A DNA stretch of 64,000 nucleotides, from positions 427,999-491,998 of the forward strand of contig JAQWEN010000001.1 of the NCBI GenBank assembly GCA_028704885.1, read 5' to 3'. Positions 1-64,000 of this stretch are shown here, piece by piece (within the stretch, counting starts at the first letter, position 1; every line of letters begins with the position of its first letter). This stretch comes from Candidatus Shapirobacteria bacterium. Lineage in GTDB: Bacteria > Patescibacteriota > Microgenomatia > UBA12405. A program made the position numbers and the translations under genes. The notes under the pieces are model-generated. The model made no database searches, was not told the origin of the DNA, and saw nothing but the letters and a program-made list of their open reading frames with translations.

Positions 1-44
1 TCGTTGATTAATTTTTTAAGACCTTCAAAATCAATGTTCATAAT

Positions 45-1013
45 TTATTTTTTGATTATTTTTTTAATATTGCAATATGTTTGCCACAATTTAAAATATT
101 TGGATAAAAAAATTTTATTTAATTTAATTTCGTCGTTGGAAATACTTCTGTTTATTTCTTCAATCTTTTTAATTAAATCTAAATTTTTTGATTGGTAGTA
201 AGATATCTCTTTATCTATTTCCTTATATATTTTTTCTAACTTTAGGTTTATTTCTGCTTTATAAGTTTGACAAACATTCAAATTAAATGTTTTATCGTAA
301 TAATGGGACCAGATGTCTGGAAAACAAAAAATATTATTTTGTTGAGGTTTTAGAAAGAGGACTCCAAGACCATGAGAATGGAAAAATTCTAGCGAAGAAT
401 ATTTGTTTTTCAGTTCATCCCAAAGTTTATAGACACCAAAGTCTTCTTTTTTTTCCGCAATATCATGAAACATGACAATACCATCTTTTTTTACCTTAGA
501 TATCCAATTATTAAAATCATGCCTAACTGCTTCGTAAGTGTGTAATCCGTCTATGTGTAATAAATCTATTGAATTGTCTTCAAATTCTAAAAGAGCATCG
601 TCAAAATATTTTTTAATTAAATTTATTTTTAGTGATTTATAAAATTTATCTTTTATTTCTTTAACTTCATTTAAAACAGTATTGTCATAAAATCCAGCTT
701 GTTTATCCCCTTCCCAACTATCGATTGCATATAAATTGCAGTCTAATTGCTCATCTTTTACTGCTTGGCACATAGAAAAGAAAGAAGTGCCTTTATGCGT
801 TCCTAATTCAACTATAGTTTTTGGTTTAATATTTCTAACTAAATCATAGGCAAAATATTTATGTCCTGCCCATGGCCAGTCTAAATCTGGAAAGATTGCT
901 TCATATTCAAATTTTGGATTATAAAACTCAAATTTTGTTAATATTTTTATATTATTGTCCATTTGAATATTTTTTAACTGCTGCGGTGGGGGTGGTGTCG
1001 CATTGAATTTCAT
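45..1013 (-). CDS. Class I SAM-dependent methyltransferase (Methyltransf_24-like) with a ~70-aa C-terminal coiled-coil-like tail
   Basis: Motifs IVELGTHKGTSFF (SAM-binding glycine-rich loop), AIDSWEGD and LLHIDGLHTYEAVRHDFNNW...DGIVMFHDI. The C-terminus EINLKLEKIYKEIDKEISYYQSKNLDLIKKIEEINRSISNDEIKLNKIF is heptad-like. It lies immediately downstream of wzt in the same operon. The first 17 aa overlap the wzt 3' end, and an internal ATG at 960-962 (MDNNIKIL) is an equally plausible start. Confidence 0.6.
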   Translation of the reverse strand: MKFNATPPPPQQLKNIQMDNNIKILTKFEFYNPKFEYEAIFPDLDWPWAGHKYFAYDLVRNIKPKTIVELGTHKGTSFFSMCQAVKDEQLDCNLYAIDSWEGDKQAGFYDNTVLNEVKEIKDKFYKSLKINLIKKYFDDALLEFEDNSIDLLHIDGLHTYEAVRHDFNNWISKVKKDGIVMFHDIAEKKEDFGVYKLWDELKNKYSSLEFFHSHGLGVLFLKPQQNNIFCFPDIWSHYYDKTFNLNVCQTYKAEINLKLEKIYKEIDKEISYYQSKNLDLIKKIEEINRSISNDEIKLNKIFLSKYFKLWQTYCNIKKIIKK

Positions 1014-1782
1014 GGTGGTTTAGATAGATGGCACGAGTGCAGAATTTTTCAACTTGGCCAAGGCTATGGGAAACAAAAATTATAGTAATATCTTTTGATT
1101 TTTTAAATTCTTCCATTTTGGCAAAACATTTTTCTTGGAAAGCAGAGTCACCTACCGCAAGAATTTCATCGACAATTAAAATTTCTGGATGAACGTGAAT
1201 AGCCACGGCAAAAGCCAGGCGCATATACATACCTGAAGAATAATGTTTGACTGGTTGGTCTATAAATTCCCAAAGTTCAGCAAAATCAACAATTGATTTG
1301 TAACTTTGATCGATTTCTTTGCGTTTAAGGCCAAGAATGGCACCATTTAGATAAATATTTTCTTTACCAGTTAGTTCTGGATGGAAACCGGCACCAAGCT
1401 CGATTAGAGGTGAGATTTTGCCCTTGACATATACTTTTCCACTAGTAGGCCACATAACACCGGCAATGAGCTTTAGAATAGTAGATTTACCACTGCCATT
1501 GGGGCCGATAATGCCAACCGTCTCCCCTTTTTTTATTTCAAAACTAATGTCATTTAGGGCCGTAAAACTTTCACTAGTTTTTTCGCCGCGAATTAGAGCG
1601 GGAAGAAATTCTTTGAAGGTTTTATGACTTAATTTGCTAAATTGTTTGGAAACATGATCAAATTTAATGACTATTTGATCTGGTTCGCTAGTACGCTGGT
1701 TCGCTAGTACGCTGGAACTTTGAAGTTTTGGTTCGCTAGTTCGCTGGTTCGCTGGAACTTTTGAACTCTGTTTATTGATCAT
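952..1782 (-). CDS. wzt: ABC transporter ATP-binding protein for a polysaccharide exporter (Wzt/TagH/KpsT-like), lacking a C-terminal carbohydrate-binding domain
   Basis: Walker A GIIGPNGSGKSTILKLIAG, the ABC signature YSSGMYMRLAFAVAI and Walker B ILIVDEILAVGD. It sits next to an ABC-2 permease. About 35 aa precede the usual N-terminal IVIKFDHVSKQF motif, and that extension is encoded by a tandem DNA repeat. Confidence 0.8.
   Translation of the reverse strand: MINKQSSKVPANQRTSEPKLQSSSVLANQRTSEPDQIVIKFDHVSKQFSKLSHKTFKEFLPALIRGEKTSESFTALNDISFEIKKGETVGIIGPNGSGKSTILKLIAGVMWPTSGKVYVKGKISPLIELGAGFHPELTGKENIYLNGAILGLKRKEIDQSYKSIVDFAELWEFIDQPVKHYSSGMYMRLAFAVAIHVHPEILIVDEILAVGDSAFQEKCFAKMEEFKKSKDITIIFVSHSLGQVEKFCTRAIYLNHHEIQCDTTPTAAVKKYSNGQ
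1681..1768. repeat. Degenerate tandem repeat with 16-nt periodicity (units tggttcgctagtacgc x2, tggaactttgaagttt, tggttcgctagttcgc, tggttcgc, tggaacttttgaactc), lying inside the 5' end of wzt
   Basis: Read directly from the sequence. It encodes the 48-nt-periodic peptide PANQRTSEP...ANQRTSEP in the Wzt N-terminal extension. A related copy lies at 2142-2170 on the other side of the four-helix-bundle gene. Confidence 0.7.
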
Positions 1783-2134
1783 TGTTATATTTTACCTTAG
1801 TAATAAAAGAATTTAGCATTTTAGCTAATGATTCATATTGATCTAAAAGAGCTTTTGCTTGTGATTTTTCAATATAACCTATGTCTTGGCTAAAAAGTAT
1901 AAAATTTTGAGTTTCATAAAGAGAACCTTTGGACTGATACAGGAATTGAATAAATTCTTTGTTGCCCTTACGTCCAAAACCTTCGGCAATATTAGCAGAG
2001 ATAGAAGTGGATGCTCTTTGTAGTTGAGATATTATTCCAAATATTTCTGATTTTGGAAATGTTTGGGTTATCTTATATATGGAAATAGCTAGTTTATTAG
2101 CTTCTTTCCAAATGTTTAAATCTGTAAAATTCAT
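1772..2134 (-). CDS. Four-helix-bundle protein of the 23S rRNA intervening-sequence protein family (TIGR02436/PF05635-like; same family as DGR Avd)
   Basis: 120 aa with the family hallmarks W.EA..L...IY..T..FPK.E..G...Q..RA..SI.ANIAEG..R....EF..FL..S.GS..E.Q. Its stop overlaps the wzt start by 11 nt. It is bracketed by copies of the GGTTCGCTAGTAC(G/A)CTGGTTCG repeat. Confidence 0.8.
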   Translation of the reverse strand: MNFTDLNIWKEANKLAISIYKITQTFPKSEIFGIISQLQRASTSISANIAEGFGRKGNKEFIQFLYQSKGSLYETQNFILFSQDIGYIEKSQAKALLDQYESLAKMLNSFITKVKYNNDQ

Positions 2135-2141
2135 GTTAATT

Positions 2142-2170
2142 TAGTTCGCTAGTACACTGGTTCGTTAGTT
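2142..2170. repeat. Single copy of the tagttcgctagtacactggttcgttagtt repeat, upstream of the four-helix-bundle gene
   Basis: It matches the 1681-1712 units at about 25 of 29 positions and forms the right-hand bracket of the four-helix-bundle gene. Confidence 0.5.
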
Positions 2171-2190
2171 TTTAATTTTTTAATTTGTAG

Positions 2191-2222
2191 TAGACTAGAA
2201 GTCTAGAGAACTAGAGCTCTAG
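2191..2222. promoter_or_regulatory. CTAG-rich segment with a perfect 12-nt palindrome CTAGAGCTCTAG (2211-2222); candidate operator or protein-binding site
   Basis: tagactagaagtctagagaactagagctctag carries 5 CTAG tetramers in 32 nt. It lies between the wzm stop and the four-helix-bundle gene start. Confidence 0.3.
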
Positions 2223-2234
2223 CGCACTAAAAAT

Positions 2235-3035
2235 CTAAATGTTATCGGCGAAGATTTTTTCGCGAGATTTAAAATAACGAAGACCAAATAAAAGAACAAC
2301 AAAGGAAAGAATAGTGGCAATTATGAGACTAGAATATTTTGGAACTCCACCGCTAAGAATAACTTGACGATAAGCATTAGTAATAACAGCCATAGGATTT
2401 AATTGAAAAATGATCTTATATTTTGCAGGAATCATGTCGGCTGAGTAAATTATCGGGGTGACATACATCCATAAAAGTAAAATCATAGATAATAAATATT
2501 GAACGTCGCGATAAAGAAGATTGGCAGCAGCAAAGAAAAGAGATAGACCGAGAGTGAAAATTTGTTGAATGAAAAAGATTGGAATAACCCAAAGAATATT
2601 AATATTTATGGGCATGTGATAGGCAATCATATAGATGATTAAAACTATGTTGGCAAAAAGGAAATCAATTATTTTGGCGATGATAGTGGAAATTACTAAT
2701 ATAGTTCGGGGAAAATAAATTTTAGTAATTAAACCACCGGCACTAACCAGAGAAGCAGAGGCAGAAGAAAGAGAATTGGAAAAAAGAGTCCACGGTAAGA
2801 GGGCGACAAAAAGAAATATAGAATAAGGAATGTGTCCCGAAGAATAAGTTGGAATGCGCATAATAATGGAAAAGGCAAAAGACATAACCAACATTTGGGC
2901 CAAAGGATTTAAAATTACCCAAAAATAACCAAGAATGGATTGTTTATAGCGGGCTTTAACTTCACGGCCAACCATCTGCCAAAGTAATTCGCGCCATTTA
3001 TGAATAGCTTGGATTTCTTTTATAAGCGATAACAT
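2235..3035 (-). CDS. wzm: ABC-2 type polysaccharide exporter permease (Wzm/TagG/KpsM-like)
   Basis: N-terminus WRELLWQMVGREVKARYKQSILGYFWVILNPLAQMLVMSFAFSII is the classic ABC-2 permease signature. The protein is 266 aa with about 6 TM segments and sits upstream of wzt. Confidence 0.8.
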   Translation of the reverse strand: MLSLIKEIQAIHKWRELLWQMVGREVKARYKQSILGYFWVILNPLAQMLVMSFAFSIIMRIPTYSSGHIPYSIFLFVALLPWTLFSNSLSSASASLVSAGGLITKIYFPRTILVISTIIAKIIDFLFANIVLIIYMIAYHMPININILWVIPIFFIQQIFTLGLSLFFAAANLLYRDVQYLLSMILLLWMYVTPIIYSADMIPAKYKIIFQLNPMAVITNAYRQVILSGGVPKYSSLIIATILSFVVLLFGLRYFKSREKIFADNI

Positions 3036-3141: not shown

Positions 3142-4215
3142 TTAATTATTTTTTACTCTCGATTGACGGAAGAGATTGATGGGATTAATAATAAATTTTA
3201 AAATGATTATGGAAAAGATAATGGAAAAAATAGTGGTGGCGAGACCTAAAAATTGATGTGGCAAAGCAGTGAAATGAGTTAAAATGTCGATGATTAAAAA
3301 ATGAGAAATGTAGACTGGAAATGAAAGTTCGCCGATAAATCGGTCAATTTTATTGTTTTTGAATAAATTGAAGATAAAGGGAATAAAAATAAAACTAAAT
3401 AAGAATAAAACTAATTGTTTGGTGCGTTCATGAGGTAAAAATTGGTAATAAATTAAAAAAGAGAAATAAAAAAGGAAACTATAAATGGATAATTTTTGGA
3501 AATCTTTTGTTTTTAGATATCGATAAATTCGATACATCAAAATTCCTGATAAAAAGAAAATTAATTCAGTGGGAAAAAAGCGATAGTTCCATGGATCATG
3601 ATTTAATCCCCGGCTATACAAAAATAGTCTTAATCCAAAACTTAGAGACATTATTAATAGTAGATACCGATTTTTGAAGCGATTTAAAAATGGAGCCAGA
3701 AAATAAAAAAATAGTTCAAGGCTTAGTGTCCAAGCTTGACTGATAAAGAAAAAATTATAAATTTCTGGTTTAAATAATCGGAAATTGGAAGTAAAAAAAA
3801 GAGAACCGGTGGTGGTGTTTAGGCCAAAAAAAAGCAGAATATCTTGACCAAAAATAATCAAATTACTGGTGATAAAAGTTATAAAAGTGAAAGGATTTAA
3901 GTTGTAGTTTTTGTTAAATAAAGCAAAGACATTTGGAGAATTTTGGTTTAAATAAAAATAAATTAGCTCAAAAATTATGGCAAATATTAAAACCAGCCAG
4001 TAAGTAGGAAATATTTTTAAAAAACGATTGCTGATAAATAATTTATAGTCAGATTTTTTGTTATATTTTTCAGTTAAAATCAAAGCCATGTAAAAACCGG
4101 AAATCATAAAGAAAACTTCGACAGCCATTTGGCCTTGAATAAAATTGAGGCCAAAAATTGGACTAGTGTGGGCAGTGATAACGGAAATAGCGAGTAATAA
4201 TCTGATTAAACCCAT
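3142..4215 (-). CDS. Acyltransferase family 3 (OafA/YrhL-like membrane O-acyltransferase)
   Basis: N-terminus MGLIRLLLAISVITAHTSPIFGL...VEVFFMISGFYMA (the R..L..A.V..H...VFF.ISGF hallmark) and about 10 TM helices over 357 aa. Confidence 0.75.
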   Translation of the reverse strand: MGLIRLLLAISVITAHTSPIFGLNFIQGQMAVEVFFMISGFYMALILTEKYNKKSDYKLFISNRFLKIFPTYWLVLIFAIIFELIYFYLNQNSPNVFALFNKNYNLNPFTFITFITSNLIIFGQDILLFFGLNTTTGSLFFTSNFRLFKPEIYNFFFISQAWTLSLELFFYFLAPFLNRFKNRYLLLIMSLSFGLRLFLYSRGLNHDPWNYRFFPTELIFFLSGILMYRIYRYLKTKDFQKLSIYSFLFYFSFLIYYQFLPHERTKQLVLFLFSFIFIPFIFNLFKNNKIDRFIGELSFPVYISHFLIIDILTHFTALPHQFLGLATTIFSIIFSIIILKFIINPINLFRQSRVKNN

Positions 4216-4223
4216 GTGTAAAG

Positions 4224-4236: not shown

Positions 4237-5214
4237 ATGAACAAAAATTTGAAGGTGTGTACGATTGGCGGTGGGTCGGGAATGCCAATTGTAAATAAGG
4301 CCTTAATTAGGGCAGGATTTGAAAATATTAAATCGATTGTGACGACTTTTGACAGTGGTGGAGATAGCGGAAGAATGAGGACAGATGAAAGAGGCAGAAT
4401 TTTAGCTTTTTCTGATTATTGGCGAGCCTTAATCTCTCTTTGGGATGATGGTAAACAAAAAGAAATTTGGACAGAGATGCTTCGATTTAGAGATGGTAGA
4501 GGCAGAAATTTTGGAAATATGTTTTTTCAATTTCTGTCAGAAAAAGAAGGAAAATTGTCCGATGTTGATTCGATGTTTGAGGCTTTAACTGGAGCTAAAT
4601 TAAAAGGGTCAGTAATACCAGTTTCAACAGATTCGGCTAATTTTTGTTTTAAGACAATAAGCGGTAAAGAATATTGCGGAGAACATAATTTAGATGATTT
4701 AAGAATGTCATTAGATAAAGTGGACGATATTTGGTTAACACCAGAAGTTAAAGCAAATAAAGAAGCGATTGATTCTATAATTGAGGCGGATGTAATTATT
4801 GTTTGTCCAGGAAGTATGTATGGATCAATTTTAATTAATTTTTTGCCACAAGGCATGATTGAGGCTTATAAAAAAAGTAAAGCTAAAAAAATATTGATGA
4901 CTAATATTTCATCAGTGGCTAATGAAAACGATGATTTTAATCAAGATGATTATGTGGCCACTTTTGAAAAGTATTTAAAAACCAAATCCCCTTTTGATTT
5001 GATTTTGATGGCTGATATGGACTGTTTGGATCAAACTTTATTAAAAAAAGTTTTAAAACTTTATGCTTTAGAACATTCTTTTCCGATTAAATTTAATAAG
5101 AAAAGCAAGGAAAAAACAGTAATGGTTGATATTGTTAAAATTGAGGAAAAAAATATGAGATTAAGACATAGTGAGGAGAAATTAAGAGAGGTATTTAGAA
5201 CACTGAAACTCTAA
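4237..5214 (+). CDS. yvcK: YvcK/UPF0052 family protein (gluconeogenesis-factor / CofD-like UDP-sugar-binding protein)
   Basis: VCTIGGGSGMPIVNKALIRAGF...IVTTFDSGGDSGRMR matches B. subtilis YvcK VVFGGGTGL...IVTVADDGGSSGRLR, and IIVCPGSMYGSILINFLPQG matches IVIGPGSLYTSVLPNLLVPG. The protein is 325 aa. Confidence 0.75.
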   Translation: MNKNLKVCTIGGGSGMPIVNKALIRAGFENIKSIVTTFDSGGDSGRMRTDERGRILAFSDYWRALISLWDDGKQKEIWTEMLRFRDGRGRNFGNMFFQFLSEKEGKLSDVDSMFEALTGAKLKGSVIPVSTDSANFCFKTISGKEYCGEHNLDDLRMSLDKVDDIWLTPEVKANKEAIDSIIEADVIIVCPGSMYGSILINFLPQGMIEAYKKSKAKKILMTNISSVANENDDFNQDDYVATFEKYLKTKSPFDLILMADMDCLDQTLLKKVLKLYALEHSFPIKFNKKSKEKTVMVDIVKIEEKNMRLRHSEEKLREVFRTLKL

Positions 5215-5218: not shown

Positions 5219-5262
5219 AAACCCACTCCTAAATCCCCTCCCTTGAGGAAATGAGGGGACTT
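5219..5262. other. GC-rich structured intergenic element E2 (AAACCCACTC ... CCCCTC / GAGGGG 6-bp stem ... ACTT), related to E1
   Basis: Stem 5235-5240 pairs with 5253-5258. It lies between yvcK and the TMTC-like gene and shares its 5' decamer and stem chemistry with 3075-3141. Confidence 0.35.
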
Positions 5263-7018
5263 GGTAAAATCAAATATGTCACAGAAAAAACTTAAGAAAT
5301 TAAGAAAATTGGAAGCTGTAAATTTAGTAAAAGAAGTAATTTTGGAGCCGGTTGCGGGTTTTAGGCAAATTATTAAAGAAAATTGGAAATTTTTATTAGC
5401 CTTGATAGTTGGTGTTTTTATATTGTACTTAAATAGTTTGCATGGAGACTTTGTTTCTGATGATTATGCTTCGATAACTCAATATGCTGATATTAAAAAT
5501 CTTTCTGTTGTATTGAAAAAGCCAAATTTACCAGGATTTACTAATAGTGTTTTGGCAATAATATTTGGAATTACTAGCTCTTTTCCTTATCACTTAACTA
5601 ATTTAATTTTATATTTATTGATTTTAATAGTGGCTTTTGTTTTTGTTTTTTTAATAACAAGAAACAAAATAACATCAATGTTAACTTTGGTTTTATATGC
5701 GGTTTTACCTGTTCATGCAGAAACAATTTCATGGATTTCTGGAAGACCTTATCTATTTGTTGCTTTGTTTGTTCTTTTGTCCTTGGATTTGTTAATTTTG
5801 TTTTTAAATAAAAAACAACCTAAATATTTATGGCTAATGTTACCGACTCTAATTCTATTATTTTTGACAGATAGAATTAGAGGGTTTGCAATTGTAATTT
5901 TGTCAGTTTTATATTTCTTGACGTATAAAAATGAACTTGGTTATAAATTTAAAATAGGTAAAATTTTAATTGCAGCAATAGTGGTGACGGTAACCCTAGC
6001 GATTATTTCCTGGCCAATGATTCAGGCCAGAATTGGAGATGTTAATAGTGGTTATAACGGTTCTGAAAGTGTTTTTTATAATCCATTTTTCCAATATCCA
6101 ACTTCAATAGCTAAATATTTGCAAATAATGCTTTTTCCGGTTGATATGACTTTGTATCATACGATGTATATTTTGCCGGTTTGGTTAAATTGGATGATAC
6201 TTTTGACATTTTTAGCTTCGATTGGATATTTTTTCTTTAAAGATAAAAAAATGTTTTTTGCTTTAGCATTTATATTTTTAGCAGCGGCACCATCAATGGC
6301 GCCAGTAAAAGTTAGTTGGCTGGTAGCGGAAAGATATGTATTACTTGGAAGTTTAGGTCTTTGTTTATTTTTAATATTATTTTTTCAAAGATTTGATAAA
6401 AAATGGAAAATTCCATTTTTGATTTTATTTGTAATTTTTACTGGACTATATTCTGCAAGAGTTTATCTAAGAAACATAGATTGGAAAACAAATCACAACT
6501 TGTGGGTTAGTACTTGTCAGTATTCACCAAATAGTCATAATGCTTGGAATAATATTGGGGATGATTACGATAAATTGGCTCAATTAGAAACAACTCCTGA
6601 AGGACAAATGAATCAATATTTGAATTCAATTAAAGGTTTTACTAGATCGACAATTGTTAAAACTAATTATGCTGATGCTTTTCATAATAGAGCTAACATT
6701 TTTTACAAAATAGGAAGATATGATTTGGCTAGAGATAGTTATGAAACTGCTCTTTATTATGGACCAAATCTTTATCAAAGTTATTTTAGTCTTTTACAAA
6801 TCGATTTGAGTGAAAAAAGATATGATTTGGCGATGGATCATTTAAATAAATTACATAAGGCTAAACCAAATGATATTCAGGTTTATTATGTGACGGCAGT
6901 AGTATATGCGAATGCTGGAATGAAAGATGAAGCTAAAAAATTATTGACACAAATATTACAAGCCTACCCTGAATTTCAACAAGCAAAAGATTTGTTAGAT
7001 CAGTTAAATAAAATGTGA
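5261..7018 (+). CDS. TMTC-like GT-C membrane glycosyltransferase (DD-motif N-terminal membrane domain plus C-terminal TPR repeats)
   Basis: GDFVSDDYASITQYADIKN follows TM1 and matches the TMTC/DUF1736 DF..DD motif. About 10 TM helices are followed by TPR-like repeats (YYKIGRYDLARDSYETALYYGPN..., AVVYANAGMKDEAKKLL). The track start is TTG 5261, and ATG 5276 (MSQKKLKK) is more plausible. Confidence 0.6.
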   Translation: MVKSNMSQKKLKKLRKLEAVNLVKEVILEPVAGFRQIIKENWKFLLALIVGVFILYLNSLHGDFVSDDYASITQYADIKNLSVVLKKPNLPGFTNSVLAIIFGITSSFPYHLTNLILYLLILIVAFVFVFLITRNKITSMLTLVLYAVLPVHAETISWISGRPYLFVALFVLLSLDLLILFLNKKQPKYLWLMLPTLILLFLTDRIRGFAIVILSVLYFLTYKNELGYKFKIGKILIAAIVVTVTLAIISWPMIQARIGDVNSGYNGSESVFYNPFFQYPTSIAKYLQIMLFPVDMTLYHTMYILPVWLNWMILLTFLASIGYFFFKDKKMFFALAFIFLAAAPSMAPVKVSWLVAERYVLLGSLGLCLFLILFFQRFDKKWKIPFLILFVIFTGLYSARVYLRNIDWKTNHNLWVSTCQYSPNSHNAWNNIGDDYDKLAQLETTPEGQMNQYLNSIKGFTRSTIVKTNYADAFHNRANIFYKIGRYDLARDSYETALYYGPNLYQSYFSLLQIDLSEKRYDLAMDHLNKLHKAKPNDIQVYYVTAVVYANAGMKDEAKKLLTQILQAYPEFQQAKDLLDQLNKM

Positions 7019-8178
7019 AGATCTTATTTATAGAGCCGTGTTATTTTAATTTTGGGGGTTATTTTAGAGCAATTAATATCTGTACGGCACTTTCAAAAAA
7101 AGGATTTTCTATTGATCTTTTGTTGCCTTCGGATAAAAAATTTTTTTGGAAAATCAGAAAAACAAAAATTAATGAAAATTTGACAATGTATGAATTGCCA
7201 AGATTTTATATAAATTTTTTTGTTCAAGGGCGAATTTTAAGAGGATTTATTGCTACTTTGTTTGGAATTTTTAAAAAATATGATATTGTCCATGCAGCCA
7301 TGCCAGTGGAATTTGAATCGAATATTCCAGCTTTAATATTGAAAATTTTTGGTAAAAAGATTGTGATGGATTGGGACGATAGATTTGAAGACGGGGTTTT
7401 TAGTGGAAATAAAATTTTACATATGTATTTGCGTCTTTGTGAACATGGAATGCCTAAAATAATTAAAAATTATTGTGTGGCTAATGATGTTTTGGGTGAT
7501 TTAGCTAAAGAATATGGAGCTAATAATATAATTAGTATTATTAATGGAGTTAACCTTGATCAGGTTAAAGTTTTGGATAAAAAACAATCGAGAAAGAAAT
7601 TGGAATTAGACAATGAAACTAAATATCTGTTGACTTTTGGGAATACTTTTTCTGAAGAAAGAATTTTTTTATTATTTAAAACTTTGAATTATATTTTTAG
7701 TTTAGATAAAAACACAAAAATAATTTGTACTCTTAATCCTAATAAAATATTGGAAAATAAAAAAATAAAAAAGTTTTTTAATTCAAAATATCTAGATAGA
7801 TTTATAAATGTGAATTATATTCAACCAAATGATTTAGGATTATACTTATCGGCTTGTGATGCTAGTGTTTTTATTGCTGGCGATGATCCGAAAGAAAAAG
7901 TTTGTTTTCCAATAAGAATTGGAACTTATTTATGCGGTGAAACAATAATTGTAATGAATGATGTCAATTCTGAAGTGAATAAAATTTTAGATAAATATAA
8001 ATGCATGGTAATAGATAAAGATTTGGAAAAATTAGCAGCTAAAACAGTAAAAATGCTTTATTCCCCTACGATTCAAAGTGATTTAAAAAAGAAGGTAAAA
8101 TTGGCAAAAAAAGAATTATCTTATGATAATTTAGTGGCAGATTTAATTGGTTACTATCAAAAAATATTAAATGATTAA
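7015..8178 (+). CDS. GT-B fold glycosyltransferase (divergent GT4-like)
   Basis: N-terminus MKILFIEPCYFNFGGYFRAINICTALSKKGF is Rossmann-like, and a C-terminal FPIRIGTYLCGETIIVMND nucleotide-sugar-binding-like segment is present. A GTG start overlaps the previous stop. The call is weak. Confidence 0.4.
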   Translation: MKILFIEPCYFNFGGYFRAINICTALSKKGFSIDLLLPSDKKFFWKIRKTKINENLTMYELPRFYINFFVQGRILRGFIATLFGIFKKYDIVHAAMPVEFESNIPALILKIFGKKIVMDWDDRFEDGVFSGNKILHMYLRLCEHGMPKIIKNYCVANDVLGDLAKEYGANNIISIINGVNLDQVKVLDKKQSRKKLELDNETKYLLTFGNTFSEERIFLLFKTLNYIFSLDKNTKIICTLNPNKILENKKIKKFFNSKYLDRFINVNYIQPNDLGLYLSACDASVFIAGDDPKEKVCFPIRIGTYLCGETIIVMNDVNSEVNKILDKYKCMVIDKDLEKLAAKTVKMLYSPTIQSDLKKKVKLAKKELSYDNLVADLIGYYQKILND

Positions 8179-11283: not shown

Positions 11284-11325
11284 TATTTCTTGTTTAATAA
11301 GGTATTTTTTAAAAAATGTTAAAAG

Positions 11326-12888: not shown

Positions 12889-12893
12889 ATTAT

Positions 12894-15385: not shown

Positions 15386-15388
15386 TTT

Positions 15389-17376: not shown

Positions 17377-17383
17377 AAACTAA

Positions 17384-18496: not shown

Positions 18497-18497
18497 A

Positions 18498-19619: not shown

Positions 19620-19621
19620 AA

Positions 19622-20692: not shown

Positions 20693-20694
20693 AT

Positions 20695-25165: not shown

Positions 25166-25167
25166 GA

Positions 25168-42718: not shown

Positions 42719-42738
42719 TGCTTAATTCTACCTCGAAA

Positions 42739-47901: not shown

Positions 47902-47902
47902 T

Positions 47903-48781: not shown

Positions 48782-48782
48782 A

Positions 48783-51674: not shown

Positions 51675-51678
51675 GAAA

Positions 51679-57467: not shown

Positions 57468-58998
57468 AGAGAATTAGTTTGTCGTTGTCAGGCTTATTAA
57501 ACGATTTAATTAATTTTAATCGACTTTGATCAATTATTTTAAGGCGAGATTGATTAATCAGAAGATAAACTTCATCACCATATTTTTTAGCATTGGCTAA
57601 GTTGGCGGGCAATTCGGTAAAACCAAGACCAAGGCCAATAATAGTTAAATGAGGAATTTTATTGCCATAAATTTGAAGACCATCTGGAAGAGTGCCAAAA
57701 GCACCTTCGGTTCCAACAATTACATTGGCTGATAAAGATCTTTGTTTTAGAAAATCAGCTGATTCTTTAATTCCCCACCCTGAAGTCCAATCAGATAAAT
57801 AACCTTGTTCAGTGGAAGTTAATTTTTGATGAAAAGGATCAATCGAAATTTTATAGATAAATTTTAGATTTAAAATAGAAATGGCGATAATAAAAATTGT
57901 TTTTAAGAAATTAGGTTTAATTTTGGTTAAAAAATTTAAAAAGCCAATAGAAATTAAAATAATTAAAGGTGGAAGAGTAAAGAGAATATAACGGGCAGTA
58001 AAAACTTTGGCAAGAGCAGCATTGGCAATTAAGGGTAAAATCCACCAACAAATTAGTATTAAATATTTAGTATTTAGTGATTTAGATTTTTTTTGGTTTT
58101 TTAGAAATAAAATTAAACCAATAAGAGCAAAGATCAAAAGTGGCCAAGAAATATATTGATTGTAAAGAGAAAGAGTGTTTAATAAATGAGGTTTAAGAGG
58201 ATCTAACGGATGTTTTAAAATTTCGGAAATTGACCAAATATAATCTTTATTTCGAATGGCAATCTGACTGAACTGGGGCCCAAGACGAAGAATATTGTAG
58301 ATTAAAAAAGCTAGGATAGAAGAAATTATAGGAAAAATTGTTAGTTTAATTTTACGAAAATTAAATAATAAAAAGGTGGTCAGAGATAAAACTATAAAAT
58401 AAATAGCTGGAGATTTAGTAAGCCAAGAAAGACCTAAAATAAAGCCCAAAATTAAGGATATATCTAATCTGGGATATTTGGCCAAAAGTAAAGAAAGAAA
58501 TAGAGCTGAAAGGCCAAAAAATGAAAGCAAAGTGTCAGCCAAAGCCATACGGTCAAAAAAGAAGGAAAAAGGCAGAAAACAATAGATTAAAGAAGGAAAT
58601 AGTGATTTGTAGAAATTTTTATTAATACTGTCTTTAATAAATTTAAAAATATTTTGATCTTTGGATTCGTAATTTAAAAAAACTGAGGTAGTTAAAAAAA
58701 GTAATAAAACTAGACCAAAACCAGCAAAGACAGAAACAATACGACCGGAGACTAAGGGATCAGAAAACATTTTTAGAGTAACAGCATTAATCCACATAAA
58801 AAGAGGCTGTTTACCGTCAGTTTGAGGAATAAATCGGAGAGATTCTTCTGCTTTAATGATTTGGGCCCAACGGATATAGATAGCTTCATCACCAAAAACT
58901 GGAATTGCAGTTAAATTTTGGAGACGAGAGAAAAAATAAAAAACAATGATTAGGATTGACAAAAACAAAGGAAAAAATTTATTTTTGATCATAAACAC
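57448..58998 (-). CDS. PMT_2/GT39/ArnT-like GT-C membrane glycosyltransferase (paralog H)
   Basis: TAIPVFGDEAIYIRWAQII after TM1 and more than 10 TM helices. It lies immediately downstream of a Dpm1-like GT2, giving an ArnC/ArnT-style pair. Confidence 0.65.
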   Translation of the reverse strand: MFMIKNKFFPLFLSILIIVFYFFSRLQNLTAIPVFGDEAIYIRWAQIIKAEESLRFIPQTDGKQPLFMWINAVTLKMFSDPLVSGRIVSVFAGFGLVLLLFLTTSVFLNYESKDQNIFKFIKDSINKNFYKSLFPSLIYCFLPFSFFFDRMALADTLLSFFGLSALFLSLLLAKYPRLDISLILGFILGLSWLTKSPAIYFIVLSLTTFLLFNFRKIKLTIFPIISSILAFLIYNILRLGPQFSQIAIRNKDYIWSISEILKHPLDPLKPHLLNTLSLYNQYISWPLLIFALIGLILFLKNQKKSKSLNTKYLILICWWILPLIANAALAKVFTARYILFTLPPLIILISIGFLNFLTKIKPNFLKTIFIIAISILNLKFIYKISIDPFHQKLTSTEQGYLSDWTSGWGIKESADFLKQRSLSANVIVGTEGAFGTLPDGLQIYGNKIPHLTIIGLGLGFTELPANLANAKKYGDEVYLLINQSRLKIIDQSRLKLIKSFNKPDNDKLILYEIQSN

Positions 58999-59758
58999 CT
59001 TGGAGGTTGTTTCGAATAACTCTAAAAATTTCCTGCATCATTTGTTTTGATTCTTTTTTGAAACGAGCTGAATCATCACCTTTAGTAGTGCTTAAATCTT
59101 CATTTTTCCAATCAACTTCAACCTCTTTTATTTTATATCCCCATTTTTGGGCCATAAATAAAAGTTCAACATCAAAAGCGGAAACTCGCCAACCTTTTTT
59201 GTCTGATTTATCTTTAAAAAATTGAAGATTGGGAAATATTTTTTTGGCTAAATCGGTTTTTATAGCTTTAAAACCACACTGGGTATCAATTATATTAGGA
59301 AGTAAAAATAAACGACGACCAAAAAGGAAACCTCGAGCCATTATTTTTCTAATTATGGAATTACCTTCTCTGGATATACCACGAGAACCAATTACAACAT
59401 CATAATTTTGATCAAAAAATGGGATTAATTTGGTTAATTCTTTTAATGGAGTAGATTGATCCATATCAGTAAAAAGAGTTAATGGATATTTGGCTTGTTT
59501 AATTCCACCCCAAACGGCTGATGGTTTACCACCATGAGGTAAATCTAAGACTCGAAAACCTTTGTGTTTAGAGACAAAATCTTGGGCTAATTTAAGACTG
59601 TTATCAGTAGATTCATCATTACAAACAATTACTTCCCATTTAAATTGTTGAGTTTTTAAAAAAGCATAAACCTCATTTAAAACTCCATTTTTTAAATTAT
59701 TTTCTTCGTTATAGCAAGGGATTATTATTGAGATAGAGATCATTGGTTTATTATACAA
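58979..59758 (-). CDS. Polyprenol-phosphate sugar synthase (GT2, Dpm1/GtrB/ArnC-like)
   Basis: ISISIIIPCYNEENNL...WEVIVCNDESTDNS, HGGKPSAVWGG, TDMDQSTP, VVIGSRG and IIDTQCGFKAIK. Confidence 0.8.
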   Translation of the reverse strand: MYNKPMISISIIIPCYNEENNLKNGVLNEVYAFLKTQQFKWEVIVCNDESTDNSLKLAQDFVSKHKGFRVLDLPHGGKPSAVWGGIKQAKYPLTLFTDMDQSTPLKELTKLIPFFDQNYDVVIGSRGISREGNSIIRKIMARGFLFGRRLFLLPNIIDTQCGFKAIKTDLAKKIFPNLQFFKDKSDKKGWRVSAFDVELLFMAQKWGYKIKEVEVDWKNEDLSTTKGDDSARFKKESKQMMQEIFRVIRNNLQGVYDQK

Positions 59759-59789: not shown

Positions 59790-61001
59790 ATGGTTATATC
59801 GAAAAAAGTTTTTTTAGGACTATTTGTAGTAGCTTTTTTATTGAGAATTGGATTAGCAATTAGTACCTATCATTCGGATATCGGATCATTTGCAATGGCG
59901 GGAAAATATATAGTTGGTGAGGGTAAAGTTTTAGGATTTTTTGATGCAGTAACCACCAGAGGAACAAAAGGTGAATTAAAACTTTTTGGCGATCAAATAG
60001 TTTTTAACTATCAACCATTGGCTTATCTAATTCCTTCGGCTATTTATTTACCATTTAGACCGATAATTATTAACACGGCTAGTCAGTTAGTAAACACTAA
60101 TTGGACAGCATTACATCAAAAAAGTATTTACTGGCCACTTTTGATTTACAAATTACCAATGATATTAGCAGATTTGGCAATAGTTTTATTGTTACCTAAA
60201 TTGTTTGAGGATAAAAAGAAAAAAATATTAGCTCAAATATTATGGCTTTTTAACCCAATTGCAATTTATGTTAGTTCGATGATGGGTCAAGTAGATATAA
60301 TAATTGCTTTATTTTTATTATTAGCTTTGATTAATTTAAAAAATAAAAGAAATTATAAAGCAGTAGTTTGGGTGGCATTATCGGCATTAATTAAACCGGC
60401 TGGACTAATTTTGATTCCAATTGTAGCCATAAACGAATTCCATAAAAAAAATAATTGGTTTGATTTAATCAAAACCGCCTTTTTGGGTTGTTTGGTTTAC
60501 GGTTTAGGAGTGGCATCTTATATTTGGTCTCCAGCTTATAGATATTTTTCTTTATTTGCTGAACAAATTGGGAAAAGTACTTTTGCTGGGATAGCAGTAG
60601 CTTCTGGAACAGTAATTCCTTGGTTTTTCATAGCTTTTATTTTTGGTTTATTTTTATTTTGGAAAAAGAAAATTAATATTGAAACTATTTTTGGATTGTC
60701 TTTAATAACAAGTCTAGTATTTACTCATTTTCATCCACAATGGTTGGTTTGGATAATGCCGTGGATGATTTATGAATCAATTAGAAAAGAAGAAATAGTT
60801 CTTTATTTGGGAATGATAGCGGCTTGGTTGGGAATAGTTTTTTCCTTTGATTCAACCCTGCATATTGATATGTTTTTAGCCCGAGGAATGGTAACGGCAA
60901 CTACATTCAGTGGTAATTTAATATCGGAAATAACAATGTTATCTAGAGCTTATTTGGTAGCTATAACTGGATATAAATTTATCGAAAAGAAAGAAAACTA
61001 A
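59790..61001 (+). CDS. Polytopic membrane protein, HxD-motif family member 3 (putative GT-C)
   Basis: AISTYHSDIGSF, YKLPMILADLAIVLLL, LFNPIAIYVS and LIKPAGLIL. Confidence 0.45.
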   Translation: MVISKKVFLGLFVVAFLLRIGLAISTYHSDIGSFAMAGKYIVGEGKVLGFFDAVTTRGTKGELKLFGDQIVFNYQPLAYLIPSAIYLPFRPIIINTASQLVNTNWTALHQKSIYWPLLIYKLPMILADLAIVLLLPKLFEDKKKKILAQILWLFNPIAIYVSSMMGQVDIIIALFLLLALINLKNKRNYKAVVWVALSALIKPAGLILIPIVAINEFHKKNNWFDLIKTAFLGCLVYGLGVASYIWSPAYRYFSLFAEQIGKSTFAGIAVASGTVIPWFFIAFIFGLFLFWKKKINIETIFGLSLITSLVFTHFHPQWLVWIMPWMIYESIRKEEIVLYLGMIAAWLGIVFSFDSTLHIDMFLARGMVTATTFSGNLISEITMLSRAYLVAITGYKFIEKKEN

Positions 61002-61002
61002 A

Positions 61003-62481
61003 TTAATTTTTTGTACCATCTGGGTTTTTGACAAGTTTGAATATTTTTATGCCGTTGATCTCCCATTGATTATCAATTTTGGCCCAGCCAAAAGCAGCAA
61101 CTGACCATTCTGGATTACCGATAGGATTACATTCTATTTGGAAAGGTTCACAAACAACAAAAAGCTGGTCAGCTAATTTCTCTGGTAAATTGACTATTTT
61201 AGCCTGTTTAGTAGCTAAAATATAACGATATGGAGGATCATAGTTTTGTTTAGCAAGAAGGGCAAAATTAAAATCTTGGTTATTAGAATTGGCAATAATA
61301 GTATCAGCAATTTGATTAACAGTTTTTAGTTGAGAGTTAGGTTGGTAACGAAATGGATTATTAGTAAAAGAAAAGATAGTTATTAGGATAAAAAATGGAA
61401 CACCAATAAGTTTAAATTTATTAATTAAAAAAGCAGCAAGAATAAAAACTGAAGGAAAAAGGAAAGCAAAATAATGAGCATAGATATGTTGTTTATAAAG
61501 AGCCAAAGCAATTAATCCTGATAAGTACCAGAAAAAAATAATCCAAAAAGAAGATTTTTGTTTTTTATATTTAAGAAGAAGAGGTATAAGACAAAGAGTA
61601 AAAATAATACTAATTATTATGCCGACAGTTTTGTCTCTGCCAGTAAGAAGATCCGTATTAACTTGATTAAAGATACTTGGGAGCTCAGGAATGGCTTTGT
61701 AGGCTTTAATATTAACAGTGGTTTCACGATAAGTGAAAAAATTCAAAAGAGCTTTGGCGTTTTGACCATTGTGCTTGAGATCAAAAAGAACCTGAGGAGT
61801 GAGAGAAATAATAAAAATTAAAGCGGCTAAAAGGGTATATTTTATGAAGGGTTTTAAATTTGGTGATTTTGTTTTGATAAATTTAACAAGGTTATAAAGC
61901 CAAAAAAGACCAGTAAATGGTAAAAGGGCCAATCCAAGATAATGACTATTCATCACCATAACAAAAGCTATAGAAGCATATAGGAAATAATGAAATTTTT
62001 TGGATTTGAAGCTTTCAAAAAAGAAATAAATAAAAAGGAGACTGAAAAAAGGCATGATATTGGGATTCCAGATGAAATTGGAATATTTGATAGTTACCGG
62101 AGAAATGGCATATAAAAAGGCAGCAATATAGGCGGTTTTTGGATTAAACCATTTTTTACTGATAAAAAATATAAGAGCAACTGTGGCAATACTTAATAGA
62201 GCAATAAAGATAGCGGGGCCAACTGGGTTGTAATTGGCTAATAATAAGGAAGGAGCGATTAAGTAATAAAAATAAGGGCCAAGATACATGTTGCCAATAC
62301 TAGTTTGAGGGCCGATAAAGAATAAATTACCATGTTGAAGAAAATCTTTAATAATAACCACATCTCGGCCTTGATCACCCAAGAATTCCATATAGTCAGA
62401 AATTCGGTAAAGACGAAAGAAAGAGGCAATTAAAAGAATGATTATTAAAAGCCAATATTTTTTAAGAATTTTTTTAAGCAC
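61003..62481 (-). CDS. PMT_2/GT39-like GT-C membrane glycosyltransferase (paralog I, DxxRD variant)
   Basis: YMEFLGDQGRDVVIIKDFLQHGNLFFIGPQTSIGNMYLGPYFYY and more than 10 TM helices. The track start (TTG at 62595) overlaps the upstream GT2 by 122 nt; an in-frame GTG at 62479-62481 gives an 8-nt overlap and is preferred. Confidence 0.6.
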   Translation of the reverse strand: MLKKILKKYWLLIIILLIASFFRLYRISDYMEFLGDQGRDVVIIKDFLQHGNLFFIGPQTSIGNMYLGPYFYYLIAPSLLLANYNPVGPAIFIALLSIATVALIFFISKKWFNPKTAYIAAFLYAISPVTIKYSNFIWNPNIMPFFSLLFIYFFFESFKSKKFHYFLYASIAFVMVMNSHYLGLALLPFTGLFWLYNLVKFIKTKSPNLKPFIKYTLLAALIFIISLTPQVLFDLKHNGQNAKALLNFFTYRETTVNIKAYKAIPELPSIFNQVNTDLLTGRDKTVGIIISIIFTLCLIPLLLKYKKQKSSFWIIFFWYLSGLIALALYKQHIYAHYFAFLFPSVFILAAFLINKFKLIGVPFFILITIFSFTNNPFRYQPNSQLKTVNQIADTIIANSNNQDFNFALLAKQNYDPPYRYILATKQAKIVNLPEKLADQLFVVCEPFQIECNPIGNPEWSVAAFGWAKIDNQWEINGIKIFKLVKNPDGTKN

Positions 62482-63238
62482 GGTGAAAATTAATTTTATA
62501 CCAAAGCTTAAATAAATCAGAAAAGCTTTTAATGATAACTTTAATGTTTCTGCCCGTAGCTTGACCTTCAACCCGAGGATAATGATGAACTCCAACTTCG
62601 CTGATTTTGAAGCCAGCCTTTTTGGATTTGATTAAGAATTCACTACTAATAAAGGCTCCCCTTTCAGCTTCTAGCTTGGGAACAGTGTCAACAACCTTCT
62701 TATTGATTAGCTTGAAACCACAATCAATATCGGTGACATGAAGACCAAAAAGAACAAAAACGATGAGTTCCCAAATTTTGCTGGTAACAATGGCAGCTTT
62801 TGAGACTTGACGGGCCAAATAGTAGCCAATAATAATATCAGAATTAGTTTTTTGCTGCTTTTCAATGAGCTTAGTGATCTCAGTAAAGTCAAACTGACCA
62901 TCGGCATCAGTGAAGGCAATCCACTGATATTGAGCATTATAAAGGCCACTTTTAAGGGCGGCACCATAGCCACGATTTGGGTTGTGAGTGATGATTTTTA
63001 CTTGTTTTGGATAGTCTTTTTTAATTTCTTCTAAGACTTTGGCAGTGTTATCTTTGGAACCATCATTAATTAAAATAATTTCCCATTTTTCGGCTATTTT
63101 TTGAAGAACGGGGATGGTTTTACTGATAGTATTTTTAATGTTTTTCTCTTCGTTATAACAAGGAAAAAAGACAGAAAGCTCATTTATTAAAAATTTATTC
63201 ATGGCTAAAGTATAAGGCAAAAGAGGCTTAAAATACAA
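62474..63238 (-). CDS. Polyprenol-phosphate sugar synthase (GT2, Dpm1/GtrB/ArnC-like)
   Basis: LSVFFPCYNEEKNIKNTI...WEIILINDGSKDNT, NRGYGAALKSG, TDADGQFD, IIIGYYLAR and TDIDCGFKLINKK. Confidence 0.8.
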   Translation of the reverse strand: MYFKPLLPYTLAMNKFLINELSVFFPCYNEEKNIKNTISKTIPVLQKIAEKWEIILINDGSKDNTAKVLEEIKKDYPKQVKIITHNPNRGYGAALKSGLYNAQYQWIAFTDADGQFDFTEITKLIEKQQKTNSDIIIGYYLARQVSKAAIVTSKIWELIVFVLFGLHVTDIDCGFKLINKKVVDTVPKLEAERGAFISSEFLIKSKKAGFKISEVGVHHYPRVEGQATGRNIKVIIKSFSDLFKLWYKINFHRA

Positions 63239-63255
63239 GGGAAATGGGGCCTATC

Positions 63256-63284
63256 TTGACAAATTGGTGAATTGGACATATAAT
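63256..63284 (+). promoter_or_regulatory. Perfect sigma70 consensus promoter TTGACA-N17-TATAAT
   Basis: TTGACA at 63256-63261, a 17-nt spacer, then TATAAT at 63279-63284. The -10 box overlaps the track's ATG at 63283, so translation probably starts downstream. Confidence 0.5.
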
Positions 63285-63312
63285 GGCCTATAATTATATA
63301 TTAATAACGCAG

Positions 63313-63933
63313 GTGAAACACAAAATATTAACTATCAGCTTTGTATTTGGGGCAATGGCGATATTATTCTTATCGTTATTCAGTCCTTCTAAGGCCTATG
63401 GTCAATCTTATTCTCAAGGTGAAAAAGCCAAACTTTCAATTGATAAAAAGATCCGATCTGTTGGTGATACTCAATATTATGACAATATTGAAGCTTCTAA
63501 TAAAACTTTTTATGAAAATGATGTAATCGAGTTTCAAATTAGAATCGAAAATATCAGCACTGAAGTGGTCTATAATATTAATACAAAAGATATTTTACCT
63601 AAATATTTAAGCTTAATCTTTTATCCTGGCACTTTTGATAAAGATCAATATATTGTTGAATGGAATATTGATAAATTAGAAGCTGGTGAAAGTAAAACAT
63701 ACTTAATTAGAGCTAAAATTAAAGATGCTACCAAGTTTAATGCTTTAACTAAACAAACTAATAAAGCTGAAGCTTGTGGTGGTGGTTCTTGTGATCAAGA
63801 CTATGCCAGTTACTTTATTGGCAAAACAACTGTACCAGCTACTGGTGCTTCTGATATAGCTTTAAAAACAATTTTAGTTATCTCAATTGCGGCTACTGGA
63901 TTTTATTTCAGAAAGTTAGCTAGAGAATATTAA
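63313..63933 (+). CDS. Secreted DUF11-like surface protein with a C-terminal sorting-signal-like tail (VPATG motif, hydrophobic helix, basic tail)
   Basis: With a GTG start at 63313 the N-terminus is (M)KHKILTISFVFGAMAILFLSLFSPSKA/YGQ, a textbook signal peptide. AGGTGA at 63311-63316 is complementary to the 16S 3' end. The mature domain resembles DUF11-type cell-surface repeats (VIEFQIRIENISTEVVYNINTKDILPKYL). The C-terminus is TVPATGASDIALKTILVISIAATGFYFRKLAREY. The track ORF starts at 63283. Confidence 0.55.
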   Translation: MKHKILTISFVFGAMAILFLSLFSPSKAYGQSYSQGEKAKLSIDKKIRSVGDTQYYDNIEASNKTFYENDVIEFQIRIENISTEVVYNINTKDILPKYLSLIFYPGTFDKDQYIVEWNIDKLEAGESKTYLIRAKIKDATKFNALTKQTNKAEACGGGSCDQDYASYFIGKTTVPATGASDIALKTILVISIAATGFYFRKLAREY

Positions 63934-63950
63934 TCTAAATTAAACCTTTG

Positions 63951-63984
63951 AAAATCCCCTGTCGAAAGATGGGGGATTTTTATT
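63951..63984 (+). terminator. Rho-independent terminator
   Basis: aaaatcccc-tgtcgaaagatg-ggggatttt forms a 9-bp stem (5 G-C pairs) that extends into a GAAA-tetraloop hairpin and is followed by a T-run. It lies 18 nt after the stop of the surface-protein gene. Confidence 0.6.
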
Positions 63985-64000
63985 ACCACATAATACGTAT

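Follow-up and report, generated by a model that had tools for sequence, protein, structure and literature searches.

The described systems closest to the locus reported here are the pathways that build and decorate wall polymers in Gram-positive bacteria. In the general scheme, a polymer backbone is made on a lipid carrier and exported through an ABC transporter or Wzx, GT-A enzymes supply polyprenyl-phosphate sugars, GT-C glycosyltransferases transfer these outside the cell, and LCP proteins ligate the product to peptidoglycan (PMC8035078). Examples are CsbB/GtlA-GtcA-YfhO/GtlB and GacI/J-GacK(Wzx)-GacL with GacDE and LCP (PMC8035078). GT-C enzymes also act in the synthesis of mycobacterial and corynebacterial arabinogalactan, lipomannan and lipoarabinomannan (EmbA/B/C, AftA-D, PimE, MptA-C; embCAB-aftA-aftB), in the eukaryotic and archaeal N-glycan pathway (ALG3/9/12/6/8/10, STT3/AglB), in protein glycosylation by PMT (GT39), TMTC1-4 and the S. 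mutans Pgf system, and in the ArnC-ArnT transfer of aminoarabinose to lipid A (GT83). The present analysis concerns a stretch of 64,000 nucleotides (nt), hereafter the window, from a Candidatus Shapirobacteria bacterium (assembly GCA_028704885.1, contig JAQWEN010000001.1, positions 427,999 to 491,998 of the forward strand). It encodes 18 GT-C-like membrane proteins and is probably the core of a cell-envelope glycan locus that encodes a greatly expanded multi-component transmembrane glycosylation system.

The window holds 54 open reading frames (ORFs) of at least 100 amino acids (aa), taken as maximal, non-nested ORFs and named here by their first coordinate; the deposited starts of several genes lie a few codons later. 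The coding density is 0.99, the GC content is 0.26-0.31, and all intergenic gaps are 106 nt or shorter. According to a Pfam scan covering all 54 ORFs and the analysis of the membrane proteins, 50 of them are glycan-related. Large polytopic GT-C-like proteins account for 18 ORFs, which total 28,155 nt or 44 % of the window, and Leloir glycosyltransferases for a further 17 (13 GT2 and four GT1/GT4). Tailoring enzymes are three NAD-dependent epimerase/dehydratases, three S-adenosylmethionine (SAM) methyltransferases and one Acyl_transf_3 O-acyltransferase, accompanied by five radical SAM enzymes, of which four are B12-binding (9781, 11326, 12894, 22756) and one is of the SPASM type (17384). Export genes comprise an ABC-2 permease and ATPase pair and one Wzx-type MOP flippase. 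A preliminary description of this DNA had claimed at least 17 GT-C-like membrane glycosyltransferases in at least four paralogous families with an acidic motif after the first transmembrane (TM) helix, glycan machinery in nearly every ORF, both Wzx and ABC export routes and five radical SAM enzymes. These claims are borne out by the Pfam, BLASTP, hhalign and modelling results, with the qualification that one of the 18 proteins, 37927, has no catalytic loop.

The 18 membrane proteins were compared by all-against-all BLASTP and by hhalign profile-profile alignment, with profiles that included orthologues from related genomes. TM topology was judged from hydropathy peaks, whose number undercounts the TM helices. 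Every protein shows 5-10 such peaks, and in all except 37927 the first TM helix (TM1) is followed by a loop of 60-90 aa. The AlphaFold2 models of 52634 and 55728, predicted from alignments of database homologues, have about 13 TM helices each. Nine of the 18 score above the curated Pfam cut-offs (PMT, PMT_2, GT87 or Alg6_Alg8), six have sub-threshold Pfam matches only, backed by hhalign (32874, 34550, 55728, 57448, 59790, 37927), and for three (39240, 52634 and the membrane part of 5261) no Pfam GT-C match was found. Paralogues in tandem share 25-37 % identity.

Family A is the largest, with seven full-length members, all connected at 100 % hhalign probability, and the truncated 37927. Its tandem trio, 27905-29527 (-), 29511-31148 (-) and 31145-32794 (-), matches PMT with 29.5, 52.5 and 27.0 bits (cut-off 22.7). 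The other full-length members are 36151-37896 (-) (PMT_2, 4.8e-7, 30.6 bits, cut-off 26.1), 42682-44406 (+) (PMT_2, 1.2e-10), the divergent 44400-45845 (-), which is without the long C-terminal domain (PMT_2, 1.1e-13), and 39240-40916 (+), which has no Pfam match and was placed by its FDEAALGYNAYS motif, by BLASTP to 27905 (4e-48) and by hhalign. Family B consists of 32874-34553 (+) and 34550-36190 (+), both with D[DN]M after TM1 (PTPS_related, 3.5e-6 and 2e-3; BLASTP to 55728, 1e-108 and 2e-67), and of 55728-57467 (-), which was assigned by hhalign and a structural model; hhalign probability within the family is 100 %. Family C, connected at 99 % or more, comprises the GT87/PimE-like 41525-42718 (-) with HPD after TM1 (GT87, 1.2e-6, 28.9 bits, cut-off 25), the Alg6/Alg8- and GT87-like 45833-47143 (-) (Alg6_Alg8, 1.7e-6, 27.8 bits, cut-off 25; 99.6 % to 41525) and 59790-61001 (+) with HSD after TM1 (GT87, 8e-5; 99.5 % to 41525 and 99.1 % to 45833). 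In NCBIfam, 45833 matches a "cell surface glycopolymer formation protein" at 2e-7. Four proteins remain as singletons. Two of them are distantly PMT_2-like, with hhalign probabilities of 92-98.6 % to family A: 57448-58998 (-) (PMT_2, 1e-4; 98.6 % to the 31145 profile) and 61003-62595 (-) (PMT_2, 3.7e-10, 40.7 bits; 98.3 % to 42682). The third, 5261-7018 (+), is TMTC-like: a GT-C-like domain with about nine TM helices, aligned with the 42682 profile over residues 105-370 (96.7 %), is joined to C-terminal TPR repeats (TPR_2, 2.2e-10, residues 471-503). The fourth, 52634-54343 (-), is an orphan whose GT-C fold, with a C-terminal globular domain, was recognized from the predicted structure.

An acidic residue directly follows TM1 in 17 of the 18 proteins. 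The DE of family A is invariant in every subfamily (up to 41 sequences each, with 41 orthologues for each member of the trio). Among the orthologues of the fetched loci, D[DN] of family B is invariant, and the same holds for H[PG]D among the orthologues of family C, where H-P-D of 41525 is invariant in 18 sequences, and for NGHDxxWH, which follows TM1, in the 52634 family. The corresponding motifs are GDE in 57448, GDQGRD in 61003 and SDDY in 5261, for each of which the fetched loci held at most two orthologues.

The predicted structure of 55728 (pLDDT 85.4, pTM 0.88) matched STT3B (19.9), AftD (19.7), Pmt4 (19.6), AglB (18.5), AftA (17.9) and ArnT (17.6). A search of PDB sequences with the family-A profile returned only STT3, at an E-value of 0.22. 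The proteins unite a polytopic architecture with a long first outer loop, an acidic residue in that loop and similarity to established GT-C families, and none of the 18 matched a transporter family in Pfam; the assignment to transporters that the preliminary description had allowed for did not come about. Their nature as GT-C-fold glycosyltransferase-like proteins, and not transporters, is confirmed. In the family-B model, a beta-sandwich of about 80 residues (464-543) precedes an extra C-terminal TM helix (547-578); since the sandwich is followed by this helix, it would form a putative sugar-binding module tethered to the membrane at both ends.

Related loci were collected by scanning one genome per GTDB species with a three-sequence alignment of family A, which gave 557 confirmed matches. 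The best 80 of these were used to study synteny; ORFs were called in all 80 loci and searched with the 18 window proteins. The best 80 matches come from Shapirobacteria at 84-50 % identity; next are Woesebacteria, Microgenomates and "Patescibacteria group" metagenome-assembled genomes (MAGs) at about 40 %. This agrees with the assignment of the window to Candidatus Shapirobacteria, and the preliminary guess of an origin in the Candidate Phyla Radiation (CPR) or Patescibacteria was correct. Every related locus with full 10-kb flanks carries five to nine GT-C genes, and the order 31145-29511-27905 appears in nearly all loci of sufficient length. The longer order 31145-29511-27905-GT2(27081)-GT1(25961)-GT2(25168) is kept in all five loci examined in detail, which range from Shapirobacteria at 84 % identity to Woesebacteria at about 40 % and include the complete 901,682-bp Woesebacteria chromosome CP055307.1. 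A second module is syntenic in locus L085 (60 % identity), where DUF11, GT2, PMT_2, GT2, PMT_2, a family-B gene, Wzx, a 52634 orthologue, five Leloir glycosyltransferases (three GT2, one GT1, one GT2) and further PMT_2 genes were found. The GT-C array is a feature of the lineage from Shapirobacteria to Woesebacteria and is not peculiar to the source genome, and the retention of gene order from 84 % down to about 38 % identity argues for one integrated, selected pathway.

Conservation extends to the truncated family-A paralogue 37927-39240 (+). It is linked to 42682 by hhalign at 98.8 %, and the alignment starts at about residue 103 of 42682. Alignment with its paralogues begins only at about their residue 100, so that 37927 is without TM1 and the catalytic DE loop. 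The 11 orthologues in the family alignment are all short (410-467 aa), and the orthologous gene adjoins or overlaps the beginning of the full-length 39240 orthologue in 11 loci. Judged by these sequence features, 37927 is probably a non-catalytic partner of the 39240 product, and by analogy with Pmt1-Pmt2 or EmbA-EmbB the two might possibly form a heterodimer.

Compared with the Gram-positive wall-polymer systems, the locus is alike in having a putative GT-A-type synthase, a Wzx-type flippase, GT-Cs, an ABC exporter and a nearby LCP gene, and the envelope is presumably Gram-positive-like here too, without an outer membrane. The ABC-2 permease and ATPase pair lies inside the glycan locus, as in ABC-transporter-dependent export of the Wzm/Wzt and TagGH type. 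In the Gram-positive systems, however, each decoration has a single GT-C, and a genome locus encodes one to three of them, whereas 18 are found here in 64 kb. The flippase of such a multi-component system may be of the GtrA or the Wzx type; here it is Wzx-type, the window is without a GtrA-type flippase, and none of the 18 proteins scores as YfhO, GtrC or GacL type in Pfam or NCBIfam. The mycobacterial and corynebacterial arabinogalactan and lipoglycan pathways can serve as an analogous model for GT-C assembly on the outer face, but by sequence the 18 proteins are not members of the Emb or Aft families, and the phylum differs. M. tuberculosis has about the same number of GT-Cs in 4.4 Mb, while here they are gathered in one locus and the genome is about five times smaller.

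The N-glycan pathway is similar in its flipped lipid-linked oligosaccharide extended by GT-Cs, which is proposed here as well, and in the Alg6_Alg8 match of 45833. The predicted fold of 52634, which has a C-terminal globular domain, may be STT3-like, but WWDxG is missing and there is no sequence match to STT3, PglB or AglB. With PMT, TMTC1-4 and Pgf, the window shares the PMT and PMT_2 matches, the DE in the first loop, the TPR-fused 5261 and a PgfS-like GT2. The N-terminal PMT domain (PF02366) with its DE motif is present in 27905, 29511 and 31145, but MIR and PMT_4TMC domains gave no Pfam match in any of the 18 proteins (E <= 0.001-1), and canonical membership in PMT (GT39) was rejected for this reason. 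Finally, in comparison with ArnC-ArnT, the window reaches 80 bits against an ArnC equivalog cut-off of 529. A lipid A acceptor is unlikely, as CPR bacteria are thought to have no outer membrane (PMC6744442).

In the pathway considered probable here, the epimerase/dehydratases, SAM methyltransferases, four B12-binding radical SAM enzymes, the SPASM enzyme and the O-acyltransferase would tailor sugars in the cytoplasm. The seventeen Leloir glycosyltransferases would then assemble lipid-linked glycans, which would cross the membrane by the ABC-2 exporter and by the Wzx flippase. Separately, GT2s of the ArnC/PpgS/dolichyl-phosphate-hexose-synthase type would load polyprenyl phosphate with single sugars. 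The 17 GT-Cs with a catalytic loop, each with an active site presumably built on the acidic first-loop residue, would elongate, branch and decorate the exported polymer on the outer face from lipid-linked donors, the eighteenth being without this loop. Attachment of the product to peptidoglycan would probably fall to the LCP ligase, whose gene lies about 4 kb downstream.

The candidates for donor synthesis are two GT2s that both adjoin GT-C genes. The product of 62474-63238 (-), next to 61003, resembles polyprenyl-phosphate sugar synthases of the ArnC/PpgS type, with best NCBIfam matches to ArnC (1.5e-22), PpgS (5.4e-17, positions 4-201 of 226) and dolichyl-phosphate hexose transferase (3.7e-13). 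That of 58979-59758 (-) resembles polyprenyl-phosphate hexose synthases and matches PgfS (8e-14), ArnC (5e-12) and dolichyl-phosphate hexose transferase (1.8e-11, positions 3-190 of 213). By their position, these adjacent genes would fit a presumed use of polyprenyl-phosphate sugar donors by the GT-Cs. Three further GT2s with C-terminal TM hairpins (14354, 15389, 24185) point the same way. The product we favour is a complex wall-linked polysaccharide or lipoglycan, with putative donors, acceptors, order of steps and final attachment; the context leans towards a wall polysaccharide, given the ABC-2 exporter, the downstream LCP ligase and, in family B, the sugar-binding-like beta-sandwich.

Several results weigh against this pathway. 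All NCBIfam scores of 58979 and 62474 are below the curated cut-offs. Among the 54 window ORFs there is no priming phosphoglycosyltransferase (PF00953, PF02397), no Wzy (Wzy_C) or O-antigen-ligase family member and no GtrA-type flippase, and the gaps of at most 106 nt apply here as well. The pathway as drawn is consequently incomplete within the window, and of the components of a Wzx/Wzy-dependent pathway Wzx alone is present there. In addition, protein O-glycosylation would account equally well for the PMT and PMT_2 matches, the TPR-bearing 5261 and the adjacent sortase substrate.

Such a protein O-glycosylation machine, in which PMT/PMT_2-like and TPR-bearing GT-Cs would each glycosylate a separate set of secreted or wall-anchored proteins (pilins, S-layer proteins or sortase substrates) from polyprenyl-phosphate sugars, as fungal and actinobacterial PMTs, metazoan TMTCs and streptococcal Pgf do, is considered unlikely, though it is a serious rival and takes up the possible protein linkage raised in the preliminary description. 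It draws on the PMT/PMT_2 matches in family A and several singletons, on the junction of a GT-C domain with TPR repeats in 5261, on PgfS as the best match of 58979, and on the DUF11 protein with a VPATG signal that flanks the locus both here and in the relative at 60 % identity. PMT_2, however, also takes in ArnT-type lipid or polysaccharide glycosyltransferases. As no paralogue carries a MIR or PMT_4TMC domain, the proteins are not canonical GT39 PMTs, and the ABC-2 exporter, the 17 Leloir glycosyltransferases, the LCP ligase and the family-B beta-sandwich point to a polymer. The DUF11/CLIPPER surface protein itself (63283-63933 (+); DUF11, 1.2e-10) has an N-terminal signal anchor and a sortase-type sorting signal consisting of a C-terminal VPATG, a hydrophobic helix and an RKLAREY tail. 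It is a possible candidate target of glycosylation.

An arrangement like that of the endoplasmic reticulum has a still smaller probability. Here, a lipid-pyrophosphate-linked oligosaccharide made by six Leloir glycosyltransferases would be flipped by Wzx, extended outside by the Alg6/8-, GT87- and PMT_2-like GT-Cs from polyprenyl-phosphate sugars and moved en bloc to a protein or other acceptor by the STT3-like 52634. The six genes (47101-52683 (-); GT2, GT2, GT1, GT2, GT2, GT2; Glycos_transf_2 and Glycos_transf_1, 1e-16 to 1e-26) form a block headed by 52634 and lie downstream of it and of the Wzx gene (54301-55791 (-); Polysacc_synt_3, 2.4e-43; Polysacc_synt, 3.3e-24), which the 52634 gene overlaps by 43 nt. 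A Foldseek search with the 52634 model placed eleven STT3 structures on top (E-values 2.5e-9 to 1e-7), followed by DPY19, AglB and PglB, with PMTs far lower. Against a role as an oligosaccharyltransferase, 52634 belongs to no Pfam or NCBIfam family and matches no STT3 hidden Markov model, and its profile gave 0 matches among all PDB sequences at E <= 10. Moreover, the segment after the last TM helix of the family, where WWDxG would be expected, reads T[LI]K[DN]Y[FLW]GxPPP, with D conserved in 21 of 29 sequences. The view of 52634 as an en bloc transferase coupled to Wzx is a lead with a low chance of being right. The same low expectation applies to the wider idea of a Microgenomates counterpart of glycosylation in the lumen of the endoplasmic reticulum, in which a Wzx-flipped oligosaccharide would be elaborated by Alg- and PMT-like GT-Cs and transferred en bloc by the STT3-like, WWDxG-less 52634 family, possibly onto surface proteins for episymbiotic attachment.

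The 52634 family is large, with 1579 clusters at 50 % identity (E <= 1e-3), of which 746 are reached at E <= 1e-30. About one third of its best 150 representatives are longer, at about 850-1,170 aa. In the dozen or so long homologues that were examined (P0241, P0248, P0258, P0266 and P0282 among others), a signal-anchored soluble domain of about 400 aa precedes the GT-C module. These N-terminal domains are homologous to each other and do not occur in the window; searches of Pfam, NCBIfam and PDB sequences gave no match for them. P0282, at 1,639 aa, is a single chain that begins with Wzx and also contains an unannotated domain and a module like 52634.

It is highly improbable that most of the paralogues are redundant, alternative or decaying copies, for instance a variable repertoire of surface antigens that helps to escape phage or host, and not the steps of one pathway. 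This view would suit the many tandem paralogues at 25-37 % identity, the loop-less 37927 and the five to nine copies in the 21-kb core of the relatives. Against it, each paralogue has orthologues at the corresponding place in distant relatives, where the catalytic residues are invariant, the truncated 37927 is itself kept in length and position, and ORF calling revealed no frameshifts or stops within the window genes.

The kinds of enzymes and the logic of the multi-component wall-glycan pathway preferred here are already known. Novel features are the scale of the array, its dense packing within a minimal genome, its retention throughout the lineage, the conserved loop-less paralogue and the unannotated STT3-like family. 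The preliminary description had considered that loci of this composition might be common and already described. The first part holds within the lineage from Shapirobacteria to Woesebacteria. As to the second, literature searches gave no account of GT-C arrays or of oligosaccharyltransferases from Patescibacteria or Microgenomates. A study of protein families enriched in Microgenomates reported 35 mostly hypothetical families, 14 of them membrane-localised, and did not mention glycosyltransferases (Méheust et al. 2019, PMC6744442).

The organism has shed most biosynthesis yet probably kept a very complex surface glycan assembled outside the cytoplasm, which suggests a central place for this glycan in the life of the cell. 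The CPR bacteria, with their minimal genomes and a supposed life in attachment to other cells, account for a large part of bacterial diversity. Candidate roles of the glycan are host recognition, attachment and phage defence. Handles for further work are five GT-C families with defined catalytic motifs, the STT3-like family, a conserved putative non-catalytic partner and the pairs of donor-synthase and GT-C genes.

The glycan genes continue on both sides of the window, so that the locus spans at least 72 kb. Upstream on the contig, a GT2, a GT4, an epimerase, a 13-TM DUF7657/DUF7654 protein, an NTP_transferase and a SIS protein are encoded. Downstream, the DUF11 gene is followed by genes for a 389-aa protein, FtsX, FtsE, a 164-aa protein and the LCP (LytR_cpsA_psr) ligase, and then by a peptide chain release factor gene. 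The LCP gene (17465-18514 (-) in L084) lies about 4 kb past the window end, just beyond FtsEX. The DUF7657/DUF7654 protein of 653 aa (15400-17361 (-) in L083, about 6.5 kb upstream of position 1) has a GT-C-like layout, with 13 predicted TM helices and a first loop of about 95 aa containing RSDEW. This candidate for a nineteenth GT-C was not counted, as single-sequence hhalign linked it to no window family.

The chromosomes or largest contigs of the relatives measure 0.81-0.95 Mb, and a copy of 52634 with 100 % identity, also from Candidatus Shapirobacteria, lies on a contig of 735,491 bp. The source genome probably has a size of 0.75-0.95 Mb, and from these relatives and the 735-kb contig we infer that the locus takes up about 8-10 % of it. 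Many close MAGs (SRP*/binchicken isolates) bear the title "uncultured Gammaproteobacteria bacterium", while "Clostridia bacterium" is used for one, yet they carry Shapirobacteria-like loci with up to 82 % protein identity; these titles are probably placeholders or wrong labels.

At the start of the window lie a Methyltransf_24 protein of the TylF-like sugar O-methyltransferase type (45-1013 (-); PF13578, 4.2e-26), the ABC-2 ATPase (952-1782 (-); ABC_tran, 4.5e-24), the ABC-2 permease (2235-3035 (-); ABC2_membrane, 1e-14) and an Acyltransferase_3 protein (3142-4215 (-)). Downstream of 5261 follow a weakly matching GT4 (7015-8178 (+)) and two SAM methyltransferases (8171-8956 (+) and 8929-9780 (+)), and then three B12-binding radical SAM enzymes in tandem (9781-14354 (-); Radical_SAM and B12-binding domains). 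The best NCBIfam matches of 9781 are of the BchE, HpnJ and P- or C-methyltransferase types, all far below the cut-offs.

A block for sugar tailoring and cytoplasmic assembly occupies 14354-27908 (-). According to Pfam, it comprises six GT2 genes (14354, 15389, 21753, 24185, 25168, 27081), two GT1/GT4 genes (18498, 25961), three epimerase/dehydratases (16339, 19622, 20695), the radical SAM-SPASM gene (17384) and the fourth B12-binding radical SAM gene (22756-24261), all on the minus strand. The GT2s 14354, 15389 and 24185 bear C-terminal TM hairpins like those of GtrB/CsbB. Four B12-binding radical SAM genes (9781-14354 and 22756-24261) thus lie inside the sugar locus of a minimal-genome organism. 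Read from their domains, they imply putative cobalamin-dependent sugar tailoring by C-methylation or rearrangement, with cobalamin presumably obtained from outside.

Four ORFs are outside the glycan set, namely the DUF11 surface protein, a 23S-rRNA-IVS four-helix-bundle protein (1772-2134 (-); 23S_rRNA_IVP, 1.1e-38), a CofD/YvcK protein (4237-5214 (+)) and a 211-aa protein (40906-41541 (-)). The second and third correspond to the four-helix-bundle and YvcK content noticed in the preliminary description. Neither tRNAs nor Rfam families were found in the window. The 211-aa protein, encoded inside the GT-C array, has TM helices at both termini, no Pfam or NCBIfam match and an orthologue in L003. 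The gene for the four-helix-bundle protein sits inside the ABC-2 pair, with the permease gene on one side and the ATPase gene, whose start it overlaps, on the other.

Contig JAQUEN010000001.1 (GCA_028685145.1), in which position 1 of the window falls at about 33,452, differs from the window by 3 substitutions in 21.6 kb. The GT1 gene 25961-27100 (-) is one intact ORF of 379 aa in the window and is represented by two ORFs of 213 and 158 aa in that contig.

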